DNA of 64,000 bases, taken from a virus. Taxonomy: Duplodnaviria; Caudoviricetes. The stretch lies in the IMG/VR virus record IMGVR_UViG_3300030330_004154, positions 33,556-97,555 of that record; one strand, 5' to 3'. The notes under the pieces were generated by a model, which searched no databases, was not told the origin of the DNA, and worked only from the letters and a program-made list of their open reading frames with translations. Below are positions 33,197-60,183 of the stretch, one piece after another. How positions within the stretch are numbered: the first letter of the stretch is position 1; each line of letters opens with the position of its first letter. A program made the position numbers and the translations under genes.

Positions 33197-33672
33197 ACTC
33201 TTTCCCAGAAACAGCCGTAGTACCTAGTTAGACCAATGCCCATCGGAAAAGGTTCGCCTATAGTCTGAAATCTTGACTCCTTGCTCTCTTTAATGTCTTT
33301 GTGTACAATTAACTCTTTTGCTTTTTGAAACTTTGGAAGGTCGGTGGCAAAAAATATTGTTTGGATTCCGTTGTCTGGTGTTACTATATTACCACCAACT
33401 TTTACCCAGTCTCTCCTGTTCCAGTATACTTTTATCTTTATATCTTCGGTCTTTTCTACTTCTTTGATAGTCTTATTGTTTCTTTTGTAGTTTCCGTTAG
33501 GTCGTCTGTGTGGATTTACAGACCTGTTATCAGGTATATTGTCATAAGTGTTGTCAATAATTTCTATCTGCTCAATGTATACCAATTGACATGTAACTCC
33601 AAATATATTAAACGTGGAGTCAACTACGTCATAATATTTATCGAATACAGACTGAGGTATAGTTATTGGCAT
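33193..33672 (-). CDS. putative head closure (stopper) protein (159 aa)
   Basis: Size and position in the head-tail joining cluster. Confidence 0.45.
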   Translation of the reverse strand: MPITIPQSVFDKYYDVVDSTFNIFGVTCQLVYIEQIEIIDNTYDNIPDNRSVNPHRRPNGNYKRNNKTIKEVEKTEDIKIKVYWNRRDWVKVGGNIVTPDNGIQTIFFATDLPKFQKAKELIVHKDIKESKESRFQTIGEPFPMGIGLTRYYGCFWERV

Positions 33673-37707: not shown

Positions 37708-38451
37708 TTATAAGACCGGGTTAACATTAATATTATACACTGAATCTGACCAAAAACAGCCAAGATCATTTAAATACTCATTATGCATAGTTTTATTCTT
37801 GTGGTAGTACACTGGAAGTAGAGTAGTTTTTACCCCCATCGCCAGAGAGCAAATAGCAAAATGAAGCCTATCGGTTTTTACGGAAGATAATGTTGCTGCA
37901 TATTGCCAGTATTGCTGGGGTGTATGACAAAAGAAAGCAGGGTCTTTTCTTTCGGGCGGTGCTATATATTGAAATACAGTTTCTCCGGTTTTTCTAAGGA
38001 ATGTTTCATCTCCACTTTTTTCGCAAATAACTTCTGGAAAATCAAATCCTAGCGCTAAATCTGGCACTATATCTCCCTTCCCTATTATATCTCTACTGAC
38101 AGAATCCCTGAAATATAATCTTTCAAACGGTAAATCTTCTTTCTTAAACACCGATTGAGGTAGCATCCAGCAGGGTATTCCAGACTCAAAAGCCTTTTTT
38201 CTTATAGCTGCGCACTTTGGGTAGCCTACATTCCCACCAGCAAAAAGTAATAACTTGTCGCATTTGGGTATACTATCTTCCGCCAAAGCGTTTACTGTGA
38301 AGTGGTCAACGCCAAACTCTTGACAAAACCGCCTAGTAGCCAAGTACAGTAAATCATCACCAACGTTACCAAATCCGTCTACAATCCCAACCCTAAGACC
38401 TTTTAAATCTTCAAATATTGGCGCAAATAAAGACTTGTCGAGCAATCTCAT
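37708..38451 (-). CDS. polysaccharide pyruvyl transferase family protein
   Basis: GNVGDDLL, FAGGN, LPQSV, YFRDSVS, VPDLAL and TDRLHFAI motifs. Confidence 0.8.
   Translation of the reverse strand: MRLLDKSLFAPIFEDLKGLRVGIVDGFGNVGDDLLYLATRRFCQEFGVDHFTVNALAEDSIPKCDKLLLFAGGNVGYPKCAAIRKKAFESGIPCWMLPQSVFKKEDLPFERLYFRDSVSRDIIGKGDIVPDLALGFDFPEVICEKSGDETFLRKTGETVFQYIAPPERKDPAFFCHTPQQYWQYAATLSSVKTDRLHFAICSLAMGVKTTLLPVYYHKNKTMHNEYLNDLGCFWSDSVYNINVNPVL
37732..37740 (-). promoter_or_regulatory. putative late promoter motif GTGTATAAT
   Basis: Recurrent motif ~35 nt upstream of ATG 37697, inside the 3' end of the upstream gene. Confidence 0.6.
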
Positions 38452-39005
38452 TTCTCGTATCCGCCTTCCAGAAAATCACTATAATGTAAATAGTATATCA
38501 TATCTTTGTGGTATTGTGTTAGAGTAAAGTCGAGATCGTCAGACTTATTGCTATGAGGGAAAGCGTGTTGTTCTTTAAAAAGATTTAGTTCACGCAATCC
38601 ATTTTCTACATCTTCTACTTTTAACAAATAATCATATTTGTATATCTTTGTTACTGGAAACTTTATCAATTGCTTGGAATGAACCATCAACCAATCGTCA
38701 AAGCTAAGTTCGCTGTTGCTTTTAAGCGCATGTTTCCACTGACTAAGCGCTCTGTCGTAGGGGTTTCTAATTGGAAGAACTTTAGTGTAATTTGTAGCCC
38801 TTTTGGAGAACCAGTTTGTATGCCCTAAAGCTGGCTCATGTTCTGGCTGGGCGACATCGTTTGGTAGGTATGGCACTGGACCCTGAACAAAAACAAACTT
38901 ATCAACACCAAACACCTTATAGCTCGTTAAATAATTAGCGATAGACGTACTGTAGTTCTTGAAGGGTTGCCAAACTAAAATATTTTTAGAGTTATTTATT
39001 AGCAC
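38448..39005 (-). CDS. sulfotransferase family 2-like protein
   Basis: 5'-PSB-like PFKNYSTSI, 3'-PB IRNPYDRALSQW, KVED and C-terminal YSDF...Y. Confidence 0.7.
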   Translation of the reverse strand: MLINNSKNILVWQPFKNYSTSIANYLTSYKVFGVDKFVFVQGPVPYLPNDVAQPEHEPALGHTNWFSKRATNYTKVLPIRNPYDRALSQWKHALKSNSELSFDDWLMVHSKQLIKFPVTKIYKYDYLLKVEDVENGLRELNLFKEQHAFPHSNKSDDLDFTLTQYHKDMIYYLHYSDFLEGGYEK

Positions 39006-39796
39006 GTCTCCCTCCAGAATGGTCTGAACATTTCTTGGTGGTCTATTTCGGGCTGTGGAAAATATTCGTAATTACCCTGAGCTATTCTTTCTAAAAGATC
39101 TATCCTGTAGTGAATTGGCCTGCAACCATTTACGTGTACAAAATAAGCGTCTTCAATCTTAGACCAGAACTCAAAGTCTATAAACTCTAGGTTGTATCTC
39201 CAATTAACTAATTCAAAGTCGTCTTCATTTAGGTTCAGGATAAGATAATCCTGATCAAAGCACCATAATTTATAGTAGGGTTTTTCTGGTTGTGAGTATT
39301 TATCAGCAAACTTTTTAGGGAAAAACATCATACCATTGTTTGGCTGAATATTTCTATTGTTTTTACATAAGTGTGGATAGTCTTCTAAAATTAAAAACCT
39401 TTCATAACAAAAGGATTTAAATAAAGTATTATGGTAGGAATTCTTTAATATTTGAAATTCATCTACTAAGGATATTTTATCTTTATTGAATATATCAAAC
39501 ACATTTGGTGAATCCTCTTTAACTACAATATCACAATCTAAGTACAGGGTGTGTTCATATTTTTCGATTACTTGTTTTAATCTATACTTATTAGACATAG
39601 GCCAGCCTGAAGACAGATCTCCATTTAGCTCAACGTAGTCAGCACCACAAGAGTTAGCATAGTTTAATATACTTGGTCTCGTTACATCAAGCTGCTTTGC
39701 GGCGACATCATTAGCTGGAATTACACAAACAGCAATGTCTGAATTTTGACGAGGTAAAGTATCATCAAATTGTATAACAGGCGTTAGCGGCTTCAT
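38999..39796 (-). CDS. GT-A fold glycosyltransferase (GT8/GT34-like)
   Basis: YANSCGADY, LYLDCDIVV (DxD), NNGMMFF, DQDYL, YFVHVNG. Confidence 0.75.
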   Translation of the reverse strand: MKPLTPVIQFDDTLPRQNSDIAVCVIPANDVAAKQLDVTRPSILNYANSCGADYVELNGDLSSGWPMSNKYRLKQVIEKYEHTLYLDCDIVVKEDSPNVFDIFNKDKISLVDEFQILKNSYHNTLFKSFCYERFLILEDYPHLCKNNRNIQPNNGMMFFPKKFADKYSQPEKPYYKLWCFDQDYLILNLNEDDFELVNWRYNLEFIDFEFWSKIEDAYFVHVNGCRPIHYRIDLLERIAQGNYEYFPQPEIDHQEMFRPFWRETC

Positions 39797-40824
39797 TTAA
39801 ACGACCCCTCTTCTGGGCATATTATAAGCCTTTCGCTCTGAGATCTCATAAGTTGCGCCTCAAGTTTTTCGCTCTCCATAAAAAAATGAGCATCAACTTC
39901 GCGCAAAACATCTGATTTAAACTTAGCAGCTTCTACTGCATGATTAGCATCTCTCTCTTGCTGTCTTTCGCTAGGAAACATTCTAAGAAATCTATATTTT
40001 ACTTTGTGTTTTTCCAACCACTCTTCTGTTTCGTCTCTGTATTTTTCAAGCCTTGCTGTTACTATACCCTTACACGTATGTACCTTTGGCAACCTGTGAT
40101 GATAAGGTTCTACATTTTTTATATAATCAATATATTTTTCTTCATCTTTAGCAATTTGATACGGAACGTTAGGACATAGTATTCCGTCGAAATCAAGTAA
40201 ACACTGACTAATGTAAGAACTATTAAAAAAATTCCACTCTAATAAATGTGGAGGTGGTAACTCTTTACCATACAGATCAACTAATTTTAACGAAGAAGGG
40301 TGTACATATAAAGAACCAAATAGAAAATTATCTCTACCTAGTTGTTTTTTTATAGGGGCTAATGAATTACCTGCATATACCGTATCGTCTAAAACCAAAA
40401 TCTTGCCGTCTAAATCTTTATGGTTCTCCATTCTCTTTCCGCCAAACTTACATACTCCAGACATAGGTTCAACAGAACCGTCTTTTTGTATAGAATACAA
40501 AGGAAGGTTAAGCATAACAGAGCAAAAGCTTGCAGGTAAAAATCCAGACCTTGGAACTGGCGCAATTCCTTTTATGTTTAGGTTAGCTATTTTTGGTATA
40601 AGATAATCTACACAGTCTTTTATCAACTGTTGATTAGTAATATATTTGCCATCAAGAACTAATTTTCTTCTATCGTGCTTTTTATCACAATCTATCTTAT
40701 AACTTGCTCTTTCTTCTTCACTAGCACCTTGACACCACTGCCAGTTTGGTGGGCTGTATGTCATTTCCTGTCTAAAATATTCACAATACCCCGCTTGAGG
40801 GCATTGGCATTCCTTAGCCGACAT
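39793..40824 (-). CDS. Cys-rich N-terminus + type I phosphoribosyltransferase + HAD-like phosphatase fusion
   Basis: VPRSG and ILVLDDTVYAGNS (PRPP-binding loop); LLDFDGILC (HAD motif I); VTAR (motif II). Confidence 0.75.
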   Translation of the reverse strand: MSAKECQCPQAGYCEYFRQEMTYSPPNWQWCQGASEEERASYKIDCDKKHDRRKLVLDGKYITNQQLIKDCVDYLIPKIANLNIKGIAPVPRSGFLPASFCSVMLNLPLYSIQKDGSVEPMSGVCKFGGKRMENHKDLDGKILVLDDTVYAGNSLAPIKKQLGRDNFLFGSLYVHPSSLKLVDLYGKELPPPHLLEWNFFNSSYISQCLLDFDGILCPNVPYQIAKDEEKYIDYIKNVEPYHHRLPKVHTCKGIVTARLEKYRDETEEWLEKHKVKYRFLRMFPSERQQERDANHAVEAAKFKSDVLREVDAHFFMESEKLEAQLMRSQSERLIICPEEGSFK

Positions 40825-40832
40825 TATTAATC

Positions 40833-41240
40833 CTATATAAAAACGTTAAAGGCTTCCCCTAGAACCATTACCACTTTGTGGTCTGCAATTTGAGGCGAAC
40901 CAGAACTCCCTCCTCCTCGATATAGGTCGGCAGGAGAATCGTCTCCTAATCCTGCCGTATCGTAAATGTATTTCAAAGTCATTTCAGGTTGATCCCCAAA
41001 CTCTCCGGTTTCACCGATTGCTGTTATCAAGTAAACATACGTAGACGCAACAGTGCTACTAGTTCCCGCTCCCGCAGTTCTTTTTTCCACGTATGCAAAT
41101 TGACCAACCTTTGCTGCGCTTATGTCTTGACCCGAATCGTATGCTATTACATAGTTAGGGCCAGAACCCGTAACGGAACCCTCATTGTATGCTTCTACTG
41201 TAGCTATAATTACAACGTGGTTTCTTAAATTCCTAGCCAT
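40833..41240 (-). CDS. hypothetical protein (135 aa)
   Basis: Start overlaps the upstream stop (TAATG). Confidence 0.65.
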   Translation of the reverse strand: MARNLRNHVVIIATVEAYNEGSVTGSGPNYVIAYDSGQDISAAKVGQFAYVEKRTAGAGTSSTVASTYVYLITAIGETGEFGDQPEMTLKYIYDTAGLGDDSPADLYRGGGSSGSPQIADHKVVMVLGEAFNVFI

Positions 41241-43993
41241 TATTTAATATCCTGACCAATAATAAACGCCATAACATTTGTTACAGTGCTTTCAAATATA
41301 AATCCATAAACATCAACGGCATTGTTTGATTCTGTCAAGGTAGGCACAATACCTCCAGCCCACTTAATAGTGGCATTACCACCGTTAACATCTACATCAT
41401 TAAATCCTTCACTAGAGTTCAAGTCAATATGCGAACTATGTTGTTTGAATCTAACTATAACTCTCTGACCGGCGGTTACATTTGTGAAGTTAATTCTTGT
41501 GGCATCTGCGTTCATAAGTATTTCATGATAGTTTGCAGCACTGCAATCAATATCTACAATACCACCATCGGTAGCAGTGTTTGGAGCTTGGTTGATAGAA
41601 CCTCCAGCGGTTATCTTGCCGGTAGTTGTTATACTATCAATGTAGGCATCTTTCCAACGAACACTGGTAGTACCTAAGTCAACATCACTATCTGCTTCTG
41701 GACCAAACACGTTATCAACCAAACTAACTTGGTTAACATTATTTGCTCTAAGTATAATCTTATTATCTGTTGTAGCAAAGTCAACTAGGTTTTGAGAGTC
41801 TCTACCTATTTTTAAGTCTGTTGCAAAGGTATCGCCCGAAACATCGCCCCCACCTCCGGTCAAACCAGAAACAACAACAATATCATCGGCATTAGTATCT
41901 ACTCTTGATTCAAAATATCCTGAGTTCGCAGTGATACTGCTATCTGCTGAGTCAACTCTAGACTCAAAGTATCCTGAGTTCGCAGTGATACTGCTATCTG
42001 CGGAATCTACTCTTGATTCAAAGTATCCTGAGTTCGCAGTGATACTGGAAGAGTTAGTTGATATATTCGTATCAGCAGCATCTACTCTAGATTCAAAATA
42101 ACCAGAGTTGGCCGTAATACTAGAATCTGCTGAGTCAACCCTAGATTCAAAGTATCCAGAATTTGCAGTGATACTGGAAGAGTTAGTTGATATATTCGTA
42201 TCAGCAGCATCTACTCTTGATTCAAAGTATCCTGAAATTGGAGCGTCGTCATAGCTGCTACCGCCACCCCCTCCGGTTGTGATAGTTACTTGCCCATTGC
42301 TATTATCTGTAAGAGTGCCGTTGCTAACAACAATTGTTCTAACGTTGCTTACATTTGGACTTCCATCTGCCTCTTTAACAGTTATACCAGAAATAGTCAC
42401 GATGTCGGCGGCGTTTACGTCTACTCTTGACTCAAAGTATCCTGAGTTGGCAGTGATACTGCTATCTGCCGAATCTACTCTTGACTCAAAGTATCCTGAA
42501 TTGGCAGCAATGCTAGAATCGGCAGAGTCTACTCTTGACTCAAAGTATCCTGAATTGGCAGCAATGCTAGAGTCGGCAGAGTCTACTCTTGACTCAAAGT
42601 ATCCTGAGTTCGCAGTGATACTGGAAGAATTTGTTGATATGCTAGAGTCCGCAGCGTCTATTCTAGATTCAAAATACCCTGAACTTGCAGTTACGCTAGA
42701 ATCTGCCGAATCCACTCTAGACTCAAAGTATCCTGAGTTGGCAGTAATACTGGAAGAATTACTTGAAATATTAGAATCTGACGAATCTACGCGAGACTCA
42801 AAATAACCAGAAAGTGAGGCGTCATTGTATAAAAGGCCAGAAACAACAACAATATCCGCAGTATTAGTATCTGCTCGCGATTCAAAATATCCAGAATTTG
42901 CAGTGACGCTGCTATCTGCTGAATCTACGCGAGATTCAAAATACCCAGACAAAGAAGAATCGTTATATAATAATCCAGATACAATTGCTATATCTGTTTT
43001 GTTTTGCGCAGCTATTCCTGAAGTAACAACACCACTAGCAGAGTTTGCTCTTATCTCTTGCAAATAATAATCACCAGAAGAAAAAGGTAATCCACCACCA
43101 CCGCCAGCGCTGGTTTGGACACTACCATCTGAAAATCTAATGGCATTAAACCTACCGCTTGGAGAAATAACATTTCCAGAAGTTTCAAAATCTCCATGTT
43201 GATTTATACTTGCTTTTTCATCAGTTGCCACACTCCAAGTTTGCAGATCGGCAGCGTGACTTACGCTAGACTCAATAGCAAAAACAGTATGTGCTACAGA
43301 AGTATTTTTGGCGGTAGTTGTTTCATCTGAAGATAAATCTAGGTTTTGAATAGCAATTTCACCGCCATTTTTGCGGATATCAATAATATTTTTAAGTTGG
43401 TGGCTTATTTGCAGTCCTTCAGAGTTTCCATCTCCAATACTTAGAATGGAAGAAGAGCTACCTCTAAGTTCAACAAAACCCTCTTTACCAGTAACCAATG
43501 CATAATACGGAGCAACAATTTCAGATTGAGTTGTTTTGAGTCCAAGCTTCCAAACTGGATCTGTTCCTTCTTCAATAAAAAAAGAAACAACTCTATTTGT
43601 GTGATCTGTAGACAAAGCCTGCCAGTAATCACCATCATCAGATCTTTTAAACGCAAAAGGTGTGGGGAAAATTACCGCATCGCTTTCATCTTTAAATATA
43701 AGTCTATCAGCAGGTACAACGCAAAAAACAATTGCTGTGCCAGATATACTTATTTTATTATCGCTATTAGAACTTTGAAATATAGTATCTCTACTTAGCG
43801 TATTAGATGAATATGTACCAATACCAATTTCAAAATTAGCTTCATTTTGTATACAATAATAAGTGGTGTTACCTTCACCAATGGCATCGGAAAATGACTG
43901 GAAACCACCAAACGTAGCGCCACTAAGCGTAATCGCTCCAGTACCCTCAGTTATAGTGGTTTCTTTTACTCTGTCTGCTATTATTAAAGCCAT
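41240..43993 (-). CDS. long fibre protein with DRVKETT N-terminal domain and coiled-coil SGYFESR repeats (917 aa)
   Basis: 15 SGYFESR repeats; DLGTTSVRWKDAY knob motif; C-terminal IKWAGGIVPTLT...VDVYGF tip module. Confidence 0.75.
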   Translation of the reverse strand: MALIIADRVKETTITEGTGAITLSGATFGGFQSFSDAIGEGNTTYYCIQNEANFEIGIGTYSSNTLSRDTIFQSSNSDNKISISGTAIVFCVVPADRLIFKDESDAVIFPTPFAFKRSDDGDYWQALSTDHTNRVVSFFIEEGTDPVWKLGLKTTQSEIVAPYYALVTGKEGFVELRGSSSSILSIGDGNSEGLQISHQLKNIIDIRKNGGEIAIQNLDLSSDETTTAKNTSVAHTVFAIESSVSHAADLQTWSVATDEKASINQHGDFETSGNVISPSGRFNAIRFSDGSVQTSAGGGGGLPFSSGDYYLQEIRANSASGVVTSGIAAQNKTDIAIVSGLLYNDSSLSGYFESRVDSADSSVTANSGYFESRADTNTADIVVVSGLLYNDASLSGYFESRVDSSDSNISSNSSSITANSGYFESRVDSADSSVTASSGYFESRIDAADSSISTNSSSITANSGYFESRVDSADSSIAANSGYFESRVDSADSSIAANSGYFESRVDSADSSITANSGYFESRVDVNAADIVTISGITVKEADGSPNVSNVRTIVVSNGTLTDNSNGQVTITTGGGGGSSYDDAPISGYFESRVDAADTNISTNSSSITANSGYFESRVDSADSSITANSGYFESRVDAADTNISTNSSSITANSGYFESRVDSADSSITANSGYFESRVDSADSSITANSGYFESRVDTNADDIVVVSGLTGGGGDVSGDTFATDLKIGRDSQNLVDFATTDNKIILRANNVNQVSLVDNVFGPEADSDVDLGTTSVRWKDAYIDSITTTGKITAGGSINQAPNTATDGGIVDIDCSAANYHEILMNADATRINFTNVTAGQRVIVRFKQHSSHIDLNSSEGFNDVDVNGGNATIKWAGGIVPTLTESNNAVDVYGFIFESTVTNVMAFIIGQDIK
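41880..42960 (-). repeat. coding tandem repeats, mostly 54-nt and 75-nt units, in two blocks (6 and 9 copies)
   Basis: SITANSGYFESRVDSADS (18 aa) and a 25-aa variant; synonymous codon variation between copies; boundaries approximate. Confidence 0.9.
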
Positions 43994-44037
43994 ATTATTT
44001 TCCGTTTATTATAAATAACTTTGTGTAACCTTATATT

Positions 44038-44046
44038 ATAATACAC
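44038..44046 (-). promoter_or_regulatory. putative late promoter motif GTGTATTAT
   Basis: Intergenic, ~45 nt upstream of the fibre gene. Confidence 0.6.
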
Positions 44047-44058
44047 TATTTTATCTTG

Positions 44059-46659
44059 TTATAGGCCGCCAGTTGGGTCATCGTCAGGAACGTCAGGATT
44101 ATCAGGGTCTTCAGGGTCTGGCTCTGGTGGATCACCATCACCATCATCTTCGCAACAGAAGCAGGATGACTGTCCTGCACCAGTAACTGTCCAAGTGGGA
44201 GGTGCGCTACAGCTACCAAGAACGGTTGGGTCATCAGCCCCTGCGGGGGCGTTTATGTTGATGTTGCAACTACTAAAGGTTCCTGACCATCTGTCTGTAT
44301 CAGTTGCAGCTTTGCTAGAATCGCAAGTTATTGATGTAGTCCAACTGTCGCCACAAGGAAAAGTTCCAGCGTCAGTGTAACTATATATGCCATTGCAGCC
44401 GCCATCATAATTTGATATTGTATCCGAAGCAGTGTCAGTAGCGCTAAATGAACAATCGCCACCGATTGAACTCATGAAAACGGGCCACGATAATGATTGT
44501 GGACAAGGACAAGGGCAAGATGTTGTTGTGGTTGTTGGGGCAGAAGTTGTGGTTGGACCCTGAGTCGTTGTTGTAGTTGGACCCTGTGTGCTTGTTGTAG
44601 TTGGACCCTGTGTGCTAGTTGTGGTCGGACCTTGAGTTGTTGTTGTAGTTGGACCCTGAGTCGTTGTGGTGGTTGGGCAAGGATTTGATGAACAACTTAC
44701 TCCCGGATGATGAATAAATTCCATATCAAAAATACCGGGAGGAGGACATTGACTAGCAGCTACATTGTCTTGACAATTAAATGTCGGCTCGGTCAAAAGC
44801 CTTGAACAGCAAGCGCCTAATGGACCCGACGTTGTTGTAGTTGTTGCACATGCACATTCTTCGCAAGTCATAGATTCTAATGTTGGTTCTAATTCTGCAC
44901 ATGTCTTGTTACTAAATAAATAGGCTAGGTATCCACCCAGTCCTAAGTCTTTATGATATTCAAACGCTTGTTCAAAGCTAGAAAAGTCAGTACAATCTCT
45001 AGGTGGGCGACGATATATTCTACCTTGAGGGTCGTCTTGGCAGCAGTTATCGCCCACGACTGTAAAAGCAGGGTCGTCACAACAGTCTGGTTTTTTACCT
45101 AAACATGCAACTACAGCTGTAGGTTCTGGCGCTAATGTTGTTGTAGTCGTTGTTGTTGGACCTTCTGTGGTAGTAGTGGTTGGTATGCACTCAGTATTAA
45201 AGGTTATGCTGACATCTGAACAATTCGGCTGTAAAACACTTCTGTCTGGGCAACAAGGACCGAATGTATCTGCGCACTGACCAATTTGTGGATCTCCACC
45301 GTTAGTCGAATTCCATTCTTGTTGTACTATTTGAGACGAAGGACAATCACACGTACATCCAACTACATTCTCTTCAGGAAAAGTCCTACCCCATTTGGTC
45401 TTCCAGAATTTTTGACCGTTTTCTTCAACGTATTCAAACCTACAGCCAATACTGACTGGCGGACATGGGTCTTGCGTTGTAGTTGTAGTTACTGGAGGTG
45501 GTGGTGGAGGTGGTGGATCACAATTAAATCCCGGCATGTCAAAACGACATCCCGGAAAATTATCAGAAAAGAAACCAGCAGTACAATCGAGGAAATTTTG
45601 ATCAAAGGTTGGAGTGCTTTTTTCAAAAAAGAACCGACTTTCACCTGCAAGTTCAAAGTATCCATAACTTGAACTAGATGTTCCTACACTCGCAAAATTA
45701 TGTAAAGAAAAACAAGTGTCGATTGGAAAAGAACTAACGTCAAATTCGTATTCCGCACTCATTGATTTAGTAAGGCTGTCACAACACGCCATTGGCAAAT
45801 CGCCATAACAGTGCGCTGAACTATCATTAAAATATGACATTAAGTGTGCAACATTTTCAATGACAGTACCATTGCCCCCTCTTGCAGTAGAGTCTGCTGG
45901 GTCTTTACACACAGAGAGGAATTTACTGTTGTGTTCAGACGCGCTTGTAAATGGTCCTACATATTTTGCTGGAACCATTTGATTATTTGCCGTAAGAACA
46001 GAAGTTAAATAAGCAGTATCGCCATATCTTTGAAATGTGCCTATTTTTAAATGAAATTTGTCAAGTTTTGTGGTAGTTGAGCCTGCAACAGTATTCTTAA
46101 ATTTTATTGTTGCACATCCATATTTAGGATCTCGACGTTTGTCGCAAAGTCCAATGTACTCTATATCTACAATACTATCATTTTGTATATATGGAAATTC
46201 ATTGTTAACAAATTCAAGTCTTGCATTAACACCCAACCCGCCCACGCTAACTGGAGCAATTCCAGACAGCCAACCATGAGTTCCAGTACCTTTGTAATCG
46301 CGAGGAACATGACCTTGCTTAAATTGCGAAAGAGACGTAGGGATACGCTCTAGATCAAGAGGTTTTTCTGGGTGATAAGACCCACTAGCAAAAACATTGG
46401 AGTCGCCTTGAACGGGACCGCTTTTCGTTAAGAAAAACGATTCACACGGAGAGGATTCAAAATCATCGTCACACTTGCCACAGAAACTACCGGGAAAATC
46501 ACTGCACGACCCCGGCATGTGAATGCCACTTACACCAGAACACTGAACTGATGTGAGCGATTCTGTACAAACAGTACCTCCAGACTCGTCGCAATAAATG
46601 CAAACAAACCCAGAAGGTAGATTAAAATCACAACAGTTACAGTTTCTAGGTTTGCCCAT
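44059..46659 (-). CDS. Cys-rich protein with Thr/Pro mucin-like tracts (866 aa)
   Basis: Dozens of Cys in small modules; poly-Pro; several poly-Thr tracts; PTTT(T/S)TQG repeats; acidic PD/PE tail; no signal peptide. Confidence 0.8.
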   Translation of the reverse strand: MGKPRNCNCCDFNLPSGFVCIYCDESGGTVCTESLTSVQCSGVSGIHMPGSCSDFPGSFCGKCDDDFESSPCESFFLTKSGPVQGDSNVFASGSYHPEKPLDLERIPTSLSQFKQGHVPRDYKGTGTHGWLSGIAPVSVGGLGVNARLEFVNNEFPYIQNDSIVDIEYIGLCDKRRDPKYGCATIKFKNTVAGSTTTKLDKFHLKIGTFQRYGDTAYLTSVLTANNQMVPAKYVGPFTSASEHNSKFLSVCKDPADSTARGGNGTVIENVAHLMSYFNDSSAHCYGDLPMACCDSLTKSMSAEYEFDVSSFPIDTCFSLHNFASVGTSSSSYGYFELAGESRFFFEKSTPTFDQNFLDCTAGFFSDNFPGCRFDMPGFNCDPPPPPPPPVTTTTTQDPCPPVSIGCRFEYVEENGQKFWKTKWGRTFPEENVVGCTCDCPSSQIVQQEWNSTNGGDPQIGQCADTFGPCCPDRSVLQPNCSDVSITFNTECIPTTTTTEGPTTTTTTTLAPEPTAVVACLGKKPDCCDDPAFTVVGDNCCQDDPQGRIYRRPPRDCTDFSSFEQAFEYHKDLGLGGYLAYLFSNKTCAELEPTLESMTCEECACATTTTTSGPLGACCSRLLTEPTFNCQDNVAASQCPPPGIFDMEFIHHPGVSCSSNPCPTTTTTQGPTTTTTQGPTTTSTQGPTTTSTQGPTTTTTQGPTTTSAPTTTTTSCPCPCPQSLSWPVFMSSIGGDCSFSATDTASDTISNYDGGCNGIYSYTDAGTFPCGDSWTTSITCDSSKAATDTDRWSGTFSSCNININAPAGADDPTVLGSCSAPPTWTVTGAGQSSCFCCEDDGDGDPPEPDPEDPDNPDVPDDDPTGGL
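44520..44680 (-). repeat. 24-nt coding tandem repeat (PTTT[T/S]TQG) x5
   Basis: Visible in both DNA and translation; boundaries approximate. Confidence 0.9.
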
Positions 46660-46660
46660 T

Positions 46661-47710
46661 TTAGCTTCCGTATATTGACCTTGCTTCTGCTAGAAATTCA
46701 TTAAATTTATTTTCATCGAATTTAGCATTTTCTACAAACTCTTTATGAACAGGATGTAAATCCATATTAAGTTCAGTAAACTCTAGTATGTAGTTTCTAA
46801 CTTTATTTTCGATAGTTAATTCATATTTAACGCCGTCTGGTCTAGCAAATCTGTGCAACCACTTTAAAAATGGTAGGCATAGCGCTTTCCTTCCAGCTTT
46901 TCTGTACTTTTCATGTATATAACACTCTTCGCCGCCAAATCCTCTACAGTGTTCATTAAACCCAAGCCAAGATCTTTTGGAAGTAAAAAACAAGCCAAGT
47001 CCTTGTGCAAAAATTTCAAACTCATTTTCATCTGGATCAAACCCAAGCCTTGTAAAACCAAGCTTTTCAAGTATACTTTCATGACCCGGAAAAGCTAATT
47101 CTTGCGGAAAAAGAGTGTAGCAATGGTCACAATACTGCATGTGATTCTGATTTTCTAAATCTACTATTTTACAAATGTTGTCTTCATTAATAACGCTAAA
47201 GTTTTTCTGTTTGCATTTGCAAGTCCAAGCGCTACCCCACCTTCCCCACATTTGACCTCCCCACTCATCATTAAAATGTGTAGAGATCATTGTTAAGTTA
47301 TCATAGACAAGTGGACCTTGATACAAATGCATTGTATTTGGGTATTTATCTATAAACTGAAATAATTTCTCTAGGGTTTGTACAACTGGGCATAGCAATA
47401 CATGACAATCCATAACAAGTACAAAATCAGTTCTTGCTTCTTCAATGATCTTGTTTCTTGTGGAAGATGTACCTTGAGAGTCTGGGAAGTCTATGACTCT
47501 AAATCTATCGCCAAGGCCAGTACCGCCCTGAAGGTTTTTGACAGCTTGAGCATGTGCGTTTTCTTTTGCGTTTTCAATAATTACAAATTCAAGTCTATTT
47601 AATAAGTCCTCCCTTTTATTAAATCTTAATTCTTTTATGATATCCTGAATACTAAAGTAAGCGCCATGAAAGTCCGAGTGATGCGCCATTCCTATGGTTA
47701 TTTTCCTCAT
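46661..47710 (-). CDS. GT2-like glycosyltransferase with Cys-rich insertion
   Basis: ITIGM...EFVIIEN...GTSSTRN...VLVMDCHV...GFNEHCRGFGGEE; internal CKC...CDHC. Confidence 0.8.
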   Translation of the reverse strand: MRKITIGMAHHSDFHGAYFSIQDIIKELRFNKREDLLNRLEFVIIENAKENAHAQAVKNLQGGTGLGDRFRVIDFPDSQGTSSTRNKIIEEARTDFVLVMDCHVLLCPVVQTLEKLFQFIDKYPNTMHLYQGPLVYDNLTMISTHFNDEWGGQMWGRWGSAWTCKCKQKNFSVINEDNICKIVDLENQNHMQYCDHCYTLFPQELAFPGHESILEKLGFTRLGFDPDENEFEIFAQGLGLFFTSKRSWLGFNEHCRGFGGEECYIHEKYRKAGRKALCLPFLKWLHRFARPDGVKYELTIENKVRNYILEFTELNMDLHPVHKEFVENAKFDENKFNEFLAEARSIYGS

Positions 47711-47749
47711 TTATTTTCCTTATATAATTATTGTATAAATTCCTTGCTG

Positions 47750-49303
47750 TTATGTTTGGCTAAGTTTTGTGTAAGATCCAGTATTGCAGTTATATCTTAT
47801 ATTTATCGTTGAACCATTAACCGGAGATCCACTGTAGAGAGCGCCAGCAGTAACGGCGTCCAAGTCTACGCACTGAGTTGAGCTATGTGGAGAACATGAT
47901 GCCGAACTTGGATTCATACTCCAGCTTCCAAAGTTGTAAGTCGCAGAACAATCTAAAGTAGTATCTGGAACGACGGTTGTGGTTGTAGTTGGACCTTGAG
48001 TAGTAGTTGTAGTTGGTCCTTGGGTAGTTGTTGTAGTTGGAGTCTGCGTAGTGGTAGTCGTTGGGCCTTGAGTTGTAGTAGTCGTTGGACCTTGCGTAGT
48101 GCTAGTTGTTGTTGTAGTCGGACCTTGGGTTGTTGTTGTAGTCGGACCTTGGGTTGTTGTTGGAAGAGGTATAGCAGCGCAACTAGACCAAATAGGTCGC
48201 CATTCACCATTTTGCATTGCAAACTGAGAGTAAGTACCACTTGCTATTTCTAAATTAGTATCTCTATTAATTGCATAATACAAATCTCCATCTTCGCAAA
48301 CGCCTCCGCAGGTTCTTTTTTCTCTCCATAATCCAGATGTTGGACTACAGAAGTCAGTTGGGGCAGCAAGATCTTCCTCAAAGAAGCCTTCATTAAACCT
48401 TACCCCAGAACCAGAACCGCAAACAGTATCGCCATGTACTGTTAAATCCCCATAAACTTGAACATCTCTAAAGAAACCGTCCCACCTAAGATCAGTTGAC
48501 CCAAGAGCAAGCCCATCATAACATGGTATAATACGTGATGTTGACTTAACAGTATCAGACGTTGGAAATTGAAGTTGACCATTTACAGATCTCCAAGCCC
48601 TATTATCGTTACCAAGGTCAAAAGTTCTAGTTACAGTTGGAGAAGCATCTCCAGAAACCTGAAGTGTTCCATAGTTATGTAATTCATTAGTACCAACAGC
48701 AAGTTTTAATTCTTGCAAATCTCCGCGAAGCAGAGGAGTTCCAGAGCCATCAAGACAACAAGACCCAGAGGCTTCTGAGTGAGCGCCAAGATAAAATTGA
48801 TAACTGTCTGATTTACCTATATAATAGCCAGCGCCATGACCAATAGCTATATTGAAATCGCCATTTCTAAGACCATAAAGAGTTTTTAAACCAACCCCTA
48901 CATTTCCGTCTCCTTCTACAGAGCCAACTAAAGAATTGCAACCAATGGCTGTGTTATAATTTCCATCTAAATTACAACTAAGAGAATAAGAGCCAGCGGC
49001 AGTATTTTCTTTTCCGAATACATTACCGCCTAATGAGGAATAACCGACCGCAGTATTGTCAACTCCGCTTTCGTAAGTAAGATCTAAATTATCTAAGGCT
49101 AGTTCCCCAACCTTTGTTTGTCTTAGGTGGGCAGATTCTATATTTAATGCTTTTATACTATGTAGCTCAAGAAACCTATGGGTAGAGTCCACAGCATTTG
49201 TGAAAACATCTCTAACATCTTTAGGAGATATTTGTTCTGTGCTATTGTCTGGTAAAAAATTGTTTAGAGATAGTATAAAATCATTTTCTGAGAACTCTGC
49301 CAT
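47750..49303 (-). CDS. fibre/spike-like protein with beta-solenoid repeats and mucin-like Thr-rich stalk (517 aa)
   Basis: 14-aa NTAVGYSSL-type repeats; DLGNDNRAW and LGSTDLRW knob motifs; PTTTTTQG repeats; Cys-containing C-terminal domain. Confidence 0.75.
   Translation of the reverse strand: MAEFSENDFILSLNNFLPDNSTEQISPKDVRDVFTNAVDSTHRFLELHSIKALNIESAHLRQTKVGELALDNLDLTYESGVDNTAVGYSSLGGNVFGKENTAAGSYSLSCNLDGNYNTAIGCNSLVGSVEGDGNVGVGLKTLYGLRNGDFNIAIGHGAGYYIGKSDSYQFYLGAHSEASGSCCLDGSGTPLLRGDLQELKLAVGTNELHNYGTLQVSGDASPTVTRTFDLGNDNRAWRSVNGQLQFPTSDTVKSTSRIIPCYDGLALGSTDLRWDGFFRDVQVYGDLTVHGDTVCGSGSGVRFNEGFFEEDLAAPTDFCSPTSGLWREKRTCGGVCEDGDLYYAINRDTNLEIASGTYSQFAMQNGEWRPIWSSCAAIPLPTTTQGPTTTTTQGPTTTTTSTTQGPTTTTTQGPTTTTTQTPTTTTTQGPTTTTTQGPTTTTTVVPDTTLDCSATYNFGSWSMNPSSASCSPHSSTQCVDLDAVTAGALYSGSPVNGSTINIRYNCNTGSYTKLSQT
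47960..48165 (-). repeat. 24-nt coding tandem repeat (PTTTTTQG), ~7 copies
   Basis: Same unit as in the 866-aa protein; boundaries approximate. Confidence 0.9.
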
Positions 49304-49312
49304 GACCCTACC

Positions 49313-49780
49313 TTAGCTGAATTTAATTTTAAGATTTGTTACATCAAACTTTACAGCATCGCCTTTAAAGACAATTCTTGGGTTGGTTAGTTGAGAGTGC
49401 ATCAAAAGATTTCCAGATCCATATCCAGAGTGATCAGTTATTGCTATTCCAGATACAAAACCCCAGTCTAATAAAGCCTTTTCAAAAACTATTGAACCAG
49501 AGTTCTTGATTACTCCACTTCCGTAGTCTCCAGATTCTTGCTCAAAAATCCAAGCGGTTCTGCCTGCTGTAGAAGGGTCTCCAAGCGAAATCCTAGAATA
49601 ACCAGTTCCACTACCGTTAATTCCACTTGGTAGTTCAGGAATTGTTCCGCCAGTATCAGAATCTATGGGAACGCCACTACAGAGCGCAATAGCTATTTCG
49701 TCTGGTTTTATAAAAACCTGACCTTTAAATACGTGATGTAATAAACCAGACTCAAGATAGTCCGACAAAGCAGTACTCAT
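49313..49780 (-). CDS. conserved phage structural protein (155 aa)
   Basis: LSDYLE..LLHHV...GYSR...N...IVF..A..DWG.V....I.D....GNLL pattern common in phage head/neck regions. Confidence 0.6.
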   Translation of the reverse strand: MSTALSDYLESGLLHHVFKGQVFIKPDEIAIALCSGVPIDSDTGGTIPELPSGINGSGTGYSRISLGDPSTAGRTAWIFEQESGDYGSGVIKNSGSIVFEKALLDWGFVSGIAITDHSGYGSGNLLMHSQLTNPRIVFKGDAVKFDVTNLKIKFS

Positions 49781-58124: not shown

Positions 58125-58386
58125 TGTTTTTTCTCACTATACTTTGAAATAATGATTGATAAACGCTTTCGTGTCCTGTTACTTTTTTATGACACCAATA
58201 GCATAATGTAATACCATTATCAACATCAAATCTCAATGCAGAAGCGCTAGCCCATTTTTGTATGTGGTGTGCGTTCAAGCGTTTTTTGCTTTTACATCCG
58301 GGCATTTGACATTTAAAGTCGTCCCTTTTGTATACTTTGATTCTCCAGTCTTTGTAAACAGGGTCATTAAAATCTCTTTTTGTCAT
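58117..58386 (-). CDS. HNH endonuclease (possibly terminase-associated)
   Basis: RDDFKCQMPGC...AHHI...NGITLCYWCH. Confidence 0.88.
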   Translation of the reverse strand: MTKRDFNDPVYKDWRIKVYKRDDFKCQMPGCKSKKRLNAHHIQKWASASALRFDVDNGITLCYWCHKKVTGHESVYQSLFQSIVRKNNG

Positions 58387-59453
58387 GCTAGATCGCTCAT
58401 CACCATCATCTTAACAAGATCTTCAAAAGTATGCTTGGGTGTCCAACCTAGTTTTTCCTTGGCTTTTGAGCAATCACCTCTTAGGTAATCTACTTCCGCT
58501 GGCCTATAAAACTCTGGGTCCACAACAACAAGCTCTTCCCAATCGTGTATTCCAACAGAGTTAAAGGCTATGGATAAAAATTCTCTTACTGTATGAGTTT
58601 CTCCCGTACAAATCACATAGTCATCTGGCTCATCCTGTTGCAGCATCATCCACATAGCTTCGCAGTAGTCCCCAGCAAAACCCCAGTCTCTATATGCATC
58701 AAGATTTCCAAGTCTTAGTTTTGGAAATTTCAATTCTTTTGTAATGTATATTTCATCATCATTGATTGATAAGTCAGATAGTCCTTTTGGAGATATATCA
58801 TTAGTCATACACCATTTAATAAAATCGCCAATCCATTTAGTAATCTTTCTAGTGACAAAATTCTCACCACGCCTTGGTCCTTCGTGGTTAAATAATATAC
58901 CTGCGCTAGCGTGTAGTCCGTAACCTTCTCTGTAAAGCCTAGTCATGTAGTGTGCGGCACATTTAGATATCGCATAGGGACTTTGAGGAAGGAACTTTGT
59001 TTCTTCATTTTGGTATTTACTTTCACTGGTCATGCCAAGTTCAATGTCGTAATTTTTTCCAAACATTTCACTGCTACTTGCTTGGTAAAATCTAGTGTTT
59101 GTCATTCCAAGGTCGGCTAGCCCTTGCAAGATGTTAAGACATCCCTTACCTGTTATATCCCAAGTTAGCGCGGGTTGTTTAAATGAAACAGCAACGTGGC
59201 TTTGCGCAGCTAGGTTATATACTTCTGCGGAATCTTGGTGGTCTTTTAAAATATTTATTATAGAATGTGCGTCCGTTAGGTCTCCACTTACTATCGTTAG
59301 ATTTTCATTGTCTAGAAGATGGCGTATCCTAGATTTAGTATCTACGCTAACCCTTCTGGCAACTCCCACGACTTGATATTCTTTTTCTAGAAGTAGCTCT
59401 GCCAAATGGCTTCCGTCTTGTCCGGTGATTCCAAAAATGATTGCTTTTTTCAT
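58383..59453 (-). CDS. gmd: GDP-mannose 4,6-dehydratase
   Basis: GITGQDGS, YNLAAQSHV, YQASSSEMFG, PQSPYAISK, GILFNHE, FVTRKIT, LGNLDAYRDWG, RPAEVD. Confidence 0.96.
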   Translation of the reverse strand: MKKAIIFGITGQDGSHLAELLLEKEYQVVGVARRVSVDTKSRIRHLLDNENLTIVSGDLTDAHSIINILKDHQDSAEVYNLAAQSHVAVSFKQPALTWDITGKGCLNILQGLADLGMTNTRFYQASSSEMFGKNYDIELGMTSESKYQNEETKFLPQSPYAISKCAAHYMTRLYREGYGLHASAGILFNHEGPRRGENFVTRKITKWIGDFIKWCMTNDISPKGLSDLSINDDEIYITKELKFPKLRLGNLDAYRDWGFAGDYCEAMWMMLQQDEPDDYVICTGETHTVREFLSIAFNSVGIHDWEELVVVDPEFYRPAEVDYLRGDCSKAKEKLGWTPKHTFEDLVKMMVMSDLA

Positions 59454-59574: not shown

Positions 59575-60183
59575 TTAATCTATTATAAATTCATCCAATT
59601 CAAAATTTGTTACTGGTCTAGTGTGTCCGTCTGTCTGAAAAAATACTGGACCCTTCTTGGGTGTTAGAAATAATTCTTTATGAGAATCGTAGGCTAACTC
59701 TTTGTCGTGCCAGTTTGTTACTTCTATTGATTTTTCGCAAAGGTTTATGTAGTATTTTGCAGAGTCTTGCGTTGGTAATAGTATGGCATGTGCTGCCAGT
59801 GAATTTTTTACTCTATAATAATCTTCATCGTATGTTTTTAGTTCAAGCTTACCGTGTCCTGAGTTGTATAAACTCAATCCGAAATAAATTAATTTAGCAT
59901 CTTCATTGATGTCTAAATCAAAAGGAAATTCATCCAATAACTCAGCATCATCCTCTAGTATTAAACATGGTAATTTATTGTTATCTATTGCTATTTGCGA
60001 AGCTTCTTTATGTCCACCGGAAACTATATTTACAGTTGCGCTACCGTCTTGCGCTGGCACTGGTACTCTTTCGTATGGAAGCCCTAGATTTGTAAGTTTT
60101 TCCTCCATATGTTCTCTTTTGCCGTTGAATGCTGGCTTTTCAGAGTTTATGTAAAATATATTTAAATCGGAACATTTACTCAT
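59575..60183 (-). CDS. GT25-like glycosyltransferase
   Basis: IFYIN...KREHM...H...LILEDDA...AHAIL pattern. Confidence 0.7.
   Translation of the reverse strand: MSKCSDLNIFYINSEKPAFNGKREHMEEKLTNLGLPYERVPVPAQDGSATVNIVSGGHKEASQIAIDNNKLPCLILEDDAELLDEFPFDLDINEDAKLIYFGLSLYNSGHGKLELKTYDEDYYRVKNSLAAHAILLPTQDSAKYYINLCEKSIEVTNWHDKELAYDSHKELFLTPKKGPVFFQTDGHTRPVTNFELDEFIID

Follow-up and report, generated by a model that had tools for sequence, protein, structure and literature searches.

Does a phage glycosylate its own fibres, and with which enzymes? The question is raised by a block of genes at positions 37708-49303 of the window analyzed here (the whole stretch of 64,000 nucleotides, positions 33,556 to 97,555 of the 97.5-kb IMG/VR record IMGVR_UViG_3300030330_004154). 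The phage is uncultured and marine, and its glycan genes are abundant. A preliminary description had proposed that mucin-like fibre proteins and several transferases form a single glycosylation system in this block. Our analysis favors, with a probability of about 0.55, two linked but separable modules that would decorate the virion fibres with glycans, both of them active in the host cytoplasm. The genes of module A (44059-49303), with the gene that borders it, are:

49313..49780, minus strand: 155-aa small fibre-building protein, gp80-like (PF23140, 'Podophage GP4 fiber I protein gp80', 1.1e-21)
47750..49303, minus strand: 517-aa fibre-like protein, proposed acceptor 1 (Thr repeats and PHROG matches)
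46661..47710, minus strand: 349-aa soluble GT-A glycosyltransferase, ppGalNAc-T-like, proposed initiating polypeptide O-glycosyltransferase (GT2)
44059..46659, minus strand: 866-aa Cys-rich, Thr/Pro-rich modular protein, proposed acceptor 2 (repeats, composition, glycosyltransferase adjacency)

The basic layout described before was confirmed. All the genes of 37708-49303 are on the minus strand, and two proteins devoid of signal peptides that share the unit PTTT(T/S)TQG flank the GT2 gene, with a single base between the GT2 stop codon and the start codon (ATG) of the gene for the 866-aa protein. No hydrophobic N-terminus, signal peptide or transmembrane-like segment was detected in any protein of the block (maximum Kyte-Doolittle value over 19 residues <1.7). 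The 517-aa protein starts with an N-terminal Gly/Asn-rich repeat region, continues with seven units PT3-5(ST)Q[GT] (residues 381-437, DNA about 47975-48162), and ends in a C-terminal domain that contains Cys. The 866-aa protein has five units PTTT[TS]TQG at residues 662-701 (DNA 44557-44676) plus further Thr runs, 59 Cys, and a single small module C-x-[FWY]-x-[FWY]...W...C...C-x-C at residues 406-439. Tandem Repeats Finder located 24-nt arrays at 44546-44676 and 47982-48162 that are 85-92% identical at the DNA level, indicating that the arrays are homologous and not merely alike in composition. Outside the repeats no significant similarity between both proteins was found by BLAST. They are the only real Thr-rich ORFs of the whole 97.5-kb record.

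Where would these proteins be located on the particle? Residues 63-180 of the 517-aa protein resemble phrog_6002 (virion structural protein, 2e-16), phrog_4636 (tail spike protein, 7e-12) and phrog_23837 (5e-8). Its N-terminal part is kept in at least 35 related contigs, and the Thr tract is found in close relatives only. These matches, together with the gp80-like neighbor, suggest that it is probably fibre-like. The 155-aa neighbor is also similar to phrog_240 ('head protein', 1.8e-12); the gp80-type fold is the tail-fibre monomer in GP4, VP1 and A1002 (PMC13730344). The 866-aa protein had no match in Pfam, PHROG or Atlas; it is probably a distal fibre or adhesin, and its gene position suggests that it belongs to the virion. 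The fibres had been assigned before to the head or neck, between a 'capsid gene' and a 'head-tail adaptor'. Both labels came from gene position, and no family match was found for either gene. A head or neck location is not supported, given the likeness of the 155-aa neighbor to a podophage tail-fibre monomer and the tail-tip position of the gene pair in another lineage (see below).

The GT2 enzyme has a solid Pfam match (PF00535, 5e-9), and in predicted fold it most resembles the animal ppGalNAc-transferases that initiate mucin O-glycosylation (GALNT, CAZy GT27). It contains D101-C-H103, F258-G-G-E-E262, H286 and a Cys4 insertion at about residues 160-215. D101-x-H103, F258GGEE262 and H286 are invariant across 20 homologues, down to 38% identity, the spacing from E to H is 25 residues in all 20, and in forms lacking the insertion D and H are 124-136 residues apart. 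In GT27 enzymes Mn2+ is bound by DxH and a His 135-138 residues further on, namely D209/H211/H344 in mouse T1 (PMC4202792) and D276/H278/H414 in TxgGalNAc-T3 (PMC11074326). By motif and spacing, we propose that D101, H103 and H286 are the equivalent metal ligands. The predicted fold and the active-site layout (DxH, distal His, FGGEE loop) resemble those of GT27. Identity is just 10-16%, and HMM comparison gave no significant match with GT27 chains. Sequence profiles did not retrieve GalNAc-Ts, the top PDB sequence match being TarS (E 0.007). Besides, the phage enzyme differs from GT27 in its Cys4 insertion of about 50 residues and in having distant homologues fused to a CmcI/rhamnosyl-O-methyltransferase-like domain, a sugar O-methyltransferase-like part. 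The ricin-type lectin domain, the signal or membrane anchor and the Golgi topology of GT27 are all missing, so that the phage enzyme would act in the bacterial cytoplasm.

We have compared the surroundings of the GT2 gene in related viruses, where co-occurrence with Thr-repeat genes had been suggested as a check. Of the 53 related viral contigs, 44 have a large Cys-rich, mostly Thr-rich ORF directly adjoining the glycosyltransferase, and in four more a single small ORF lies in between; the association is therefore supported. Cys-rich ORFs made up 45/80 of those beside the glycosyltransferase and 9/201 of those elsewhere (odds ratio 27, by Fisher tests that overstate independence, the contigs being related by descent). 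The ORF is downstream of the glycosyltransferase in the clade of the window and upstream in others, i.e., the adjacency survives flips in gene order. In another lineage (L039/L046/L052) the pair lies behind the tape measure, from which two small genes separate it. In several relatives (L003-L005, L008, L010, L016) a single protein joins the conserved N-terminal fibre part of the 517-aa family to the Cys/Thr-rich part, and in others (L023, L026-L030) the partners are Cys-rich but low in Thr. The small Cys module is present in just 12 of 50 Cys/Thr-rich partners, and BLAST of the 866-aa protein against the 517-aa one and a bacterial counterpart (see below) gave nothing significant, indicating that the association is with a composition or architecture and not with one homologous family.

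The pattern extends to Bacteria. A Cys/Thr-rich ORF precedes the glycosyltransferase in Bremerella volcania and other Planctomycetes, at loci where no obvious phage genes were seen; BLAST of the 866-aa protein against the Bremerella one gave nothing significant. A same-strand Thr-rich ORF adjoins the glycosyltransferase in 17 of 80 bacterial genomic loci, against 13 of 576 non-adjacent ORFs, and the association is found in several phyla; for the other 63 homologues a Thr-rich neighbor was not found. Several of these neighbors carry Tat-like signals and poly-Thr tails. In the repeat adhesins of bacteria (serine-rich repeat proteins with GtfA/B, autotransporters with their heptosyltransferases, HMW1 with HMW1C), a Ser/Thr-rich acceptor gene lies beside that of its own cytoplasmic glycosyltransferase, as the Thr-repeat genes adjoin GT2 here. 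However, those enzymes belong to other families (GT4/GT-B, GT41), their hosts are cellular and the products are exported by dedicated secretion systems.

The remainder of the block is module B (37708-43993):

41240..43993, minus strand: 917-aa repeat fibre, head of the module (tandem 54- and 129-nt repeats, composition)
40833..41240, minus strand: 135-aa protein (synteny in at least 25 contigs, always between repeat fibre and PRTase-HAD)
39793..40824, minus strand: 343-aa PRTase-HAD fusion, proposed PRPP-dependent (phospho)ribosyl transferase with its own phosphatase
38999..39796, minus strand: 265-aa GT8-like GT-A glycosyltransferase (PF01501, 22.5 bits, under the 24.3 cut-off)
38448..39005, minus strand: 185-aa sulfotransferase-like protein (PF03567, 22.7 bits, cut-off 22; 48 residues matched, borderline)
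37708..38451, minus strand: 247-aa polysaccharide pyruvyl transferase family protein (PF04230, 2.8e-10, 41 bits, cut-off 25.3)

The 917-aa fibre has 15 copies of an 18-aa unit containing SGYFESR, and 16% Ser. Its 135-aa companion had no family match in Pfam, PHROG or NCBIfam. The next protein combines an N-terminal Cys module of ~45 aa, a type I PRTase domain (D146-D147) and a PNKP-type HAD phosphatase (D211-x-D213); it is weak in Pfam and clear by profile (purine PRTase 3.7e-8, Pnkp1 phosphatase 6.6e-4), with the fold in agreement. Among the enzymes named in the preliminary description, GT2 and the pyruvyl transferase (matched over nearly its full length) are solid and the PRTase-HAD holds by profile and fold. 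The GT8 assignment is under the Pfam cut-off, with no PDB sequence match found, although homologues score 25.4-26.4 bits and the DxD (D87-C-D89) is invariant. The sulfotransferase is borderline, with invariant P14/K16 and R80-N-P-Y-x-R85 and a PDB profile match to a sulfotransferase at only E 0.96.

Synteny of the repeat fibre, the 135-aa protein and PRTase-HAD was seen in ~25 contigs, the order being constant in L056-L084. The enzymes that follow vary, relatives carrying methyl-, cytidylyl- and radical-SAM enzymes. Module B also appears in phages without GT2 or Thr-rich genes, indicating that its tailoring enzymes need not act on a Thr-linked glycan. The single pathway to a 'sulfated and/or pyruvylated O-glycan brush' proposed before is thus not supported in that form: pairing of acceptor and enzyme is supported for GT2 and the Thr-repeat proteins, by the ppGalNAc-T-like fold and by an adjacency seen in rearranged loci, a second lineage and bacteria, but not for the tailoring enzymes. 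A PRTase-like transferase plus a HAD phosphatase is an established route for adding ribofuranose to glycans (PMC10299916; PMC12096443). As in the ribofuranosyl pairs of capsules and O-antigens (Hib Bcs3 CriT/CrpP; C. jejuni Cj1432; Kelly et al., 2022), the fusion has the PRTase-like domain with a vicinal acidic pair and the phosphatase, and it sits amid glycan-tailoring genes. Unlike CriT, its PRTase domain has the canonical purine-PRTase-like type I fold, the HAD domain is nearest to polynucleotide-kinase 3'-phosphatases, and CriT-type structures were absent from the top 50 fold matches. Given these likenesses, a nucleotide- or RNA-directed role may also be considered.

The phage has other glycan genes, outside the finding, two of them in the packaging operon:

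58383..59453, minus strand: GDP-mannose 4,6-dehydratase, Gmd, accessory (PF16363, 5.7e-112)
60176..60934, minus strand: GT6-family glycosyltransferase, accessory (PF03414, 1.4e-15; NCBIfam Gltr_6, 1.3e-28, under its 250-bit cut-off)

A sugar island on the replication arm encodes three GT4, one GT2, a DegT aminotransferase, a nucleotidyltransferase, three epimerase/dehydratases and a carbamoyltransferase. So many generic genes away from the fibres would fit auxiliary metabolism that remodels the host surface polysaccharide (LPS, capsule, S-layer glycan), for example to block superinfection, leaving the Thr-rich proteins as unglycosylated fibres with flexible linkers; pyruvyl- and sulfotransferases are also typical of polysaccharide tailoring. 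We regard this as unlikely for the block, where no protein has a membrane segment, the GT2 fold is nearest to enzymes directed to polypeptides and not to lipids or polysaccharides, and the gene stays beside Cys/Thr-rich ORFs through rearrangement, in another structural module and in bacteria, something needless for a host-directed enzyme. Such a role is plausible for the replication-arm island and less so for module B. Modification of the DNA with glycosylated hypermodified bases against restriction, the commonest known role of phage glycosyltransferases (PMC12619734), seems very improbable for a gene in a late structural operon whose predicted fold and neighbors suggest a polypeptide acceptor; no thymidylate-synthase- or dCMP-hydroxymethylase-like gene was found in the 97.5-kb record, weak evidence given a completeness of just about 59% for this record.

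Two further readings, both slightly less probable than host remodeling, concern the proteins themselves. They could be glycosylated and yet be released or host-directed glycoproteins (adhesins, decoys, metal-binding proteins) made late in infection, since the 866-aa protein matches no virion family and the bacterial counterparts look secreted or surface-exposed, at Planctomycete loci free of obvious phage genes. However, signal peptides are absent from the phage proteins, their genes are within the structural operon between fibre genes, in the other lineage they are exactly at the position of siphophage tail-tip proteins, and in several relatives the Cys/Thr-rich part is fused to the 517-family fibre N-terminus. 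Alternatively, the adjacency could be inherited synteny, GT2 acting on another virion protein, a small molecule or a polysaccharide, with the Thr tracts as plain linkers. Linkers of Thr and Pro occur widely in extracellular proteins of modular build, most contigs share descent, and the Thr-poor partners and the many bacterial homologues without a Thr-rich neighbor point the same way. Against this, the pairing is kept while gene order flips, recurs in lineages in which BLAST no longer matches the remaining genes, as well as in several phyla of bacteria, and Thr-rich ORFs are otherwise missing from the record.

Glycosylation of virions by phage glycosyltransferases is known in the mycobacteriophages Che8, Corndog and Myrna (Freeman et al., 2023, cited in PMC12619734; see PMC11256854). 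As proposed here, the enzymes are encoded near the structural genes and act in the host cytoplasm on proteins of the phage's own particle. The mycobacteriophage glycans are carried by the C-terminal ends of subunits of the capsid and tail tube. The acceptors proposed for our phage are instead long proteins in their own right, Cys-rich and fibre-like, that bear tandem mucin-like repeats; moreover, the enzyme belongs to another family and a variable tailoring cassette is present. The mycobacteriophage case was shown experimentally, while ours is known from sequence.

In the two-module reading, we infer Thr as the acceptor and a UDP-sugar as the donor: the soluble GT-A enzyme would place the first sugar on both flanking proteins, at the PTTTTTQG tracts and at their further runs of Thr, before or during the assembly of these proteins onto the particle. 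In module B, the PRPP-dependent phosphoribosyl-transferase/phosphatase fusion would serve the 917-aa Ser-rich fibre and its 135-aa companion, and the swappable set (here GT8-like, sulfotransferase-like and pyruvyl transferase) may diversify the glycan on that fibre or, linking the modules, on the same glycoproteins. The Thr tracts would be extended linkers between Cys-rich modules, probably stabilized by disulfides or metal, and their glycosylation would make them stiff, protease-resistant and hydrophilic. Phages of this kind probably sugar-coat their own fibres.

The 97.5-kb IMG/VR record is about 59% complete (CheckV), and the window is its right-hand 64 kb. All the genes of the structural arm are on the minus strand and, in the direction of transcription, they are ordered as follows.

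Terminase large subunit (phrog_2, 8e-21)
Portal-sized protein
Scaffold-like coiled-coil protein
phrog_563 'virion structural protein'
335-aa capsid-position protein
155-aa gp80-like fibre protein (PF23140, 1e-21)
47750-49303 (-), 517-aa Thr-repeat protein
46661-47710 (-), 349-aa glycosyltransferase (GT), referred to here as GT2
44059-46659 (-), 866-aa Cys/Thr-rich protein
41240-43993 (-), 917-aa repeat fibre
135-aa protein
PRTase-HAD, GT8-like, sulfotransferase-like and pyruvyl transferase
Small connector-position genes, then phrog_11355 'tail fiber protein'

GT2 sits between fibre-like genes, downstream of the terminase, portal-sized and capsid-position genes. The capsid-position protein gave no family match and has no Thr tract (T40=5, 0 Cys). 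Among 50,697 GenBank phage records, tblastn found no match for this protein, the 517-aa protein, GT2 or the PRTase-HAD. The two proteins flanking GT2 carry tandem PTTT(T/S)TQG units, seven in the 517-aa and five in the 866-aa protein, and in each gene the units are encoded by a tandem array with a period of 24 nt; the two arrays are 85-92% identical, and outside them BLAST found nothing significant between the two proteins. No other ORF of the 97.5-kb record is truly Thr-rich, and neither signal peptides nor membrane segments were found in the proteins of the block. The shared repeats, the homologous arrays, the exclusive Thr-richness and the lack of signal or membrane segments therefore confirm what the preliminary description had noticed, that two mucin-like proteins devoid of signal peptide directly flank the GT gene. 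A single base separates the stop codon of GT2 from the ATG of the 866-aa gene, a start codon supported by the N-terminus MG(K/R)P..C.CC, which is conserved in relatives. The 866-aa protein had no Pfam or PHROGs match (residues 70-385 had no usable match in the ESM Atlas either), and a profile search of PDB sequences with the 517-aa family gave nothing useful.

We have examined GT2 by profile and by predicted structure. It scored 36.7 bits against PF00535 Glycos_transf_2 (cut-off 23.3), which all 20 aligned homologues also passed (best 1e-14). The AlphaFold2 model built on these 20 homologues was confident (pLDDT 92.9, pTM 0.91), and its best 50 Foldseek matches in the PDB were all polypeptide GalNAc-transferases (ppGalNAc-Ts), pointing to a GT-A catalytic domain of this type. 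Invariant across the homologues were D101-C102-H103, F258-G-G-E-E262 and H286. The first is a DxH motif of the GT27 type, predicted to act in Mn2+ binding, and the FGGEE stretch resembles, we assume, the WGGEN 'Gal/GalNAc-T motif'. The Mn2+ ligands of GT27 enzymes are the DxH plus a His 135-138 residues downstream (PMC4202792; PMC11074326). In the homologues of GT2 the distance from the D to H286 was 124-136 residues in those devoid of a ~50-residue Cys4 insertion and 175-185 in those having it, and the E-to-H spacing was 25 in all of them. It is from motifs and spacing only that we argue for a putative equivalence of the active sites.

The remaining features depart from GT27. GT2 stops at residue 349, directly after the catalytic domain, with no C-terminal ricin-type lectin domain, and none of the 20 homologues had a ricin or lectin Pfam match. 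There is no type II membrane topology, as neither a hydrophobic segment (maximum KD19 1.57) nor a signal peptide was found. Identity to GalNAc-Ts in the structural alignments was 10-16%, and when all PDB chains were scanned with the 20-homologue profile (E<=1), the matches were TarS, heparosan synthase, DPMS and a GT2, with no GalNAc-T among them. Because the lectin domain and the membrane anchor are absent and sequence profiles miss GT27, we do not count GT2 as a member of that family and describe it as probably ppGalNAc-T-like in its working. The insertion, at residues about 160-215 (window 47070-47230), spans ~50 residues with a CxC...CxxC pattern, is predicted to form beta-hairpins and is missing from the most distant homologues (loci L051-L053). 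It could be a zinc ribbon standing in for the missing lectin domain. A single relative, unannotated, is in BFVD.

A search with GT2 gave 53 related viral contigs, with identities of 33-93%. A large Cys-rich ORF lies immediately beside the GT in 44 of the 53 (15-126 Cys, and mostly 13-32 Thr in the best 40-residue window). In 4 further contigs one small ORF intervenes, 2 contigs are truncated, and the partner is lacking only in L051 and L053. Counting all ORFs, 45/80 of those adjacent to the GT were Cys-rich vs 9/201 elsewhere, numbers that do not amount to an independent-sample probability because the contigs are related. The partner is found downstream of the GT in the clade of the window and upstream in other clades, and some relatives have its Cys/Thr-rich part joined, in one protein, to the N-terminus that is conserved in the 517-aa fibre family. 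A small Cys module, C-x-[FWY]-x-[FWY]...W...C...C-x-C, was present in 12/50 partners, including that of the window (1/1,000 shuffles, 0/277 other ORFs); beyond it the partners share no homology. We rejected the idea of a single homologous family of partners, since the 866-aa protein gave nothing significant by BLAST outside the repeats against the 517-aa protein or against the partner found in Bremerella. Several of the Cys-rich partners (L015 6518-9883, L018 8064-9965, L020 7346-9946, L021 7428-9971 and L023 5822-9928) begin with M..CC.C..TPPPPP..GACC, and the next stretch (CF.GDS.VLM.DGS.K.ISE) resembles by eye the beginning of a Hint/intein-type domain, a likeness that hints at autoprocessing.

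The pair was also found in a distant lineage whose other genes had no match in the window. There the neck protein and the tape measure are followed by two small genes, a ~1,000-aa Cys/Thr-rich protein and a GT fused to a CmcI/rhamnosyl-O-methyltransferase-like domain, so that the pair has by gene order the tail-tip position of a siphophage. The preliminary description had placed the fibres at the head or neck. Against this siting, the gp80-like protein is a tail-fibre monomer in podophages GP4, VP1 and A1002 (PMC13730344), and the other lineage has the pair at the tail tip; the label of phrog_240, 'head protein', points otherwise. We treat the Thr-repeat proteins as putative distal fibres or adhesins.

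The family is not restricted to viruses. The metagenomic collection yielded 1,780 proteins at E<=1e-3, and reference genomes, taken one per species, yielded 267 stretches, from Planctomycetes, Verrucomicrobia, Rhizobiales, Acidobacteria, Rhodococcus and others. The GT-methyltransferase of Bremerella volcania comes right after a 900-aa ORF that has 61 Cys and linkers of the PTTTT type, with no obvious phage genes near the locus, and this arrangement is repeated in other Planctomycetes. An adjacent Thr-rich ORF on the same strand was found at 17/80 genomic loci (17/121 adjacent ORFs vs 13/576 others). Several of these bacterial neighbours are small and combine a Tat-like RRxF signal with a tail of poly-Thr. 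Neighbours with this signal or a membrane segment plus the tail are found at L159 6281-6853 (Rhodococcus erythropolis), L133 5346-5720, L115 5693-6232, L144 6277-6798, L169 2972-3760 and L170 6432-6998, and in three of them the N-terminal region resembles by eye a PqqD-like peptide-recognition element.

The genes that follow the pair (37708-43993, module B) behave differently. A search with the PRTase-HAD gave 47 contigs. About 25 of these keep the repeat fibre, the 135-aa protein and the PRTase-HAD in a fixed order, and they include phages that have neither GT2 nor Thr-rich genes. After the PRTase-HAD the window has the GT8-like, sulfotransferase-like and pyruvyl transferase genes, and the relatives have Methyltransf_24, radical-SAM/SPASM, other sulfotransferase-like, cytidylyltransferase or epimerase/dehydratase genes, or a 171-183-aa family of unknown function. 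Since module B also occurs in phages lacking GT2 and varies in its later enzymes, the one pathway building a sulfated and/or pyruvylated brush of the preliminary description splits into two modules. The 162.7-kb contig IMGVR_UViG_3300025816_000006 (L057, L029) has a PRTase-HAD/sulfotransferase/pyruvyl-transferase block 98% identical to that of the window and a GT2 only 46% identical, and therefore module B has been exchanged recently between diverged genomes. The 917-aa fibre contains 15 copies of an 18-residue unit of the type SGYFESRVD(S/A)ADSS(I/V)(T/A)AN, with 54- and 129-nt tandem repeats, and among relatives the length of the repeat fibre goes from about 200 to 2,500 aa.

The assignments of the enzymes by profile are of uneven strength. 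Like GT2, the pyruvyl transferase was above its cut-off (PF04230 PS_pyruv_trans, 41 bits vs 25.3, profile positions 1-275 of 280). The sulfotransferase-like protein barely exceeded that of PF03567 Sulfotransfer_2 (22.7 bits vs 22), over residues 66-113 only, and its best sulfotransferase match in the PDB profile search had an E of 0.96; P14/K16 and R80-N-P-Y-x-R85 were invariant in 7 homologues. The GT8 assignment fell short of PF01501 Glyco_transf_8 (22.5 bits, below 24.3), with fused homologues of 37-40% identity at 25.4 and 26.4; D87-x-D89, its DxD motif, was invariant, and a profile search with the family found no PDB sequence match. NCBIfam gave weak matches to PRTase and otherwise only a sub-threshold GT6. 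In the PRTase-HAD the first domain folds like a type I purine PRTase and its DD pair is invariant, and the HAD domain is nearest to polynucleotide-kinase 3'-phosphatases. The established route to ribofuranose on bacterial glycans uses a PRTase-like transferase plus a HAD phosphatase (PMC10299916; PMC12096443), and two traits of this CriT/CrpP type are present, a PRTase-like domain with paired acidic residues, predicted to bind PRPP, and an associated HAD-type phosphatase. CriT-type structures (CriT, or the Cj1432C catalytic domain with helical bundles) were absent from the 50 best fold matches among 48,161 chains, a set of representatives only in which an absence decides little, and the model of the protein does not allow a firm assignment to the CriT type. 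The N-terminal 45-residue Cys module, CxCPxAG(W/Y)C...PPNWQWCQ (window 40690-40824), also heads GT8 and GT8-GT4 fusion enzymes of another phage lineage (L088, L094, L098, L099, L101 and L102, near 7950-8150). It may be a shared docking, recognition or zinc-binding domain of phage glycan enzymes, and the first two roles fit because the module is common to both kinds of enzyme.

Glycan genes are also found far from the fibres. The packaging operon has a GDP-mannose 4,6-dehydratase (Gmd, 58383-59453, 6e-112) and a GT6-family glycosyltransferase (60176-60934, 1e-15), beside which a 202-aa ORF (59575-60183) had no Pfam or NCBIfam match. On the other, replication arm of the record, outside the window, there is a sugar island on the + strand (G000:C1 about 7400-33500; L103 7427-19650 and L104 725-10773) with three GT4-type glycosyltransferases, one GT2, a DegT/EryC1 aminotransferase, a sugar nucleotidyltransferase, three NAD-dependent epimerase/dehydratases (one of the Polysacc_synt_2 type) and a carbamoyltransferase. 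Together these genes show a heavy predicted investment in glycans. Also outside the window, at L103 3271-7055, DNA polymerase III alpha is in two ORFs, one with the PHP plus NTPase domains and the other with the finger domain, and a 224-aa ORF overlaps their junction.

That such enzymes remodel a surface glycan of the host instead of virion proteins is a live explanation for Gmd, GT6 and the genes of the other arm, which are generic and located away from the fibres; GT2 and its partners have their place among the structural genes. Phage GTs may also serve DNA hypermodification, against which it argues weakly that a thymidylate-synthase-like gene was not found in the ~59%-complete record. A SunS-like GT2 might instead S-glycosylate the numerous Cys residues, a reading we set aside because the enzymes matched by fold are Thr/Ser-directed and the tracts consist of Thr.

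Virion glycosylation is already known in mycobacteriophages (cited in PMC12619734; PMC11256854). As in those phages, the phage-encoded GT is located within or next to structural genes here, and after the tape measure in the distant lineage. Unlike them, where the glycan is on the C-termini of capsid and tail-tube subunits, only two fibre-like ORFs are Thr-rich in this record. Full-text literature searches on GT27 or mucin-type glycosylation in phages gave nothing relevant. New here are the family of the GT enzyme, the partners rich in Cys and the second module with its tailoring enzymes, and the interpretation of the preliminary description is partly supported. All functions are inferred here from sequence, predicted structure and gene neighbourhood. 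The most far-reaching interpretation, to which we give a probability of a little over one in three, is that GT2 founds, as its phage member, a large and so far unannotated family of prokaryotes and viruses (~1,780 metagenomic proteins, 267 reference-genome stretches). Its members would be cytoplasmic, lectin-less counterparts of ppGalNAc-Ts whose targets are poly-Thr tracts, O-glycosylated in phages on virion fibres rich in Cys and in bacteria on Thr-tailed proteins exported by Tat.

To our knowledge, virion glycosylation has been proven experimentally in only a few phages; it alters the recognition of the particles. Here conserved gene order links an enzyme whose closest structural matches are the animal mucin-initiating enzymes with proteins of mucin-like repeats, across a widespread group of large marine phages, none of them cultured, and several bacterial phyla. 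If the above reading of the family is true, there would be a bacterial and viral 'mucin-type' glycosylation system and possibly an evolutionary relative of GT27. If the proposed glycosylation of the repeat proteins is true, the enzyme and its acceptors would be a pair on which mucin-type O-glycosylation in the prokaryotic cytoplasm can be tested, and bacteria might produce mucin-like glycopeptides with the help of this soluble, lectin-free enzyme. It would also explain why phage structural operons contain odd, 'eukaryote-looking' proteins rich in Cys and Thr, and fibre glycan coats with swappable methyl, sulfate, pyruvate and ribose may be a common and fast-evolving layer in the interaction of marine phages with their hosts and environment.
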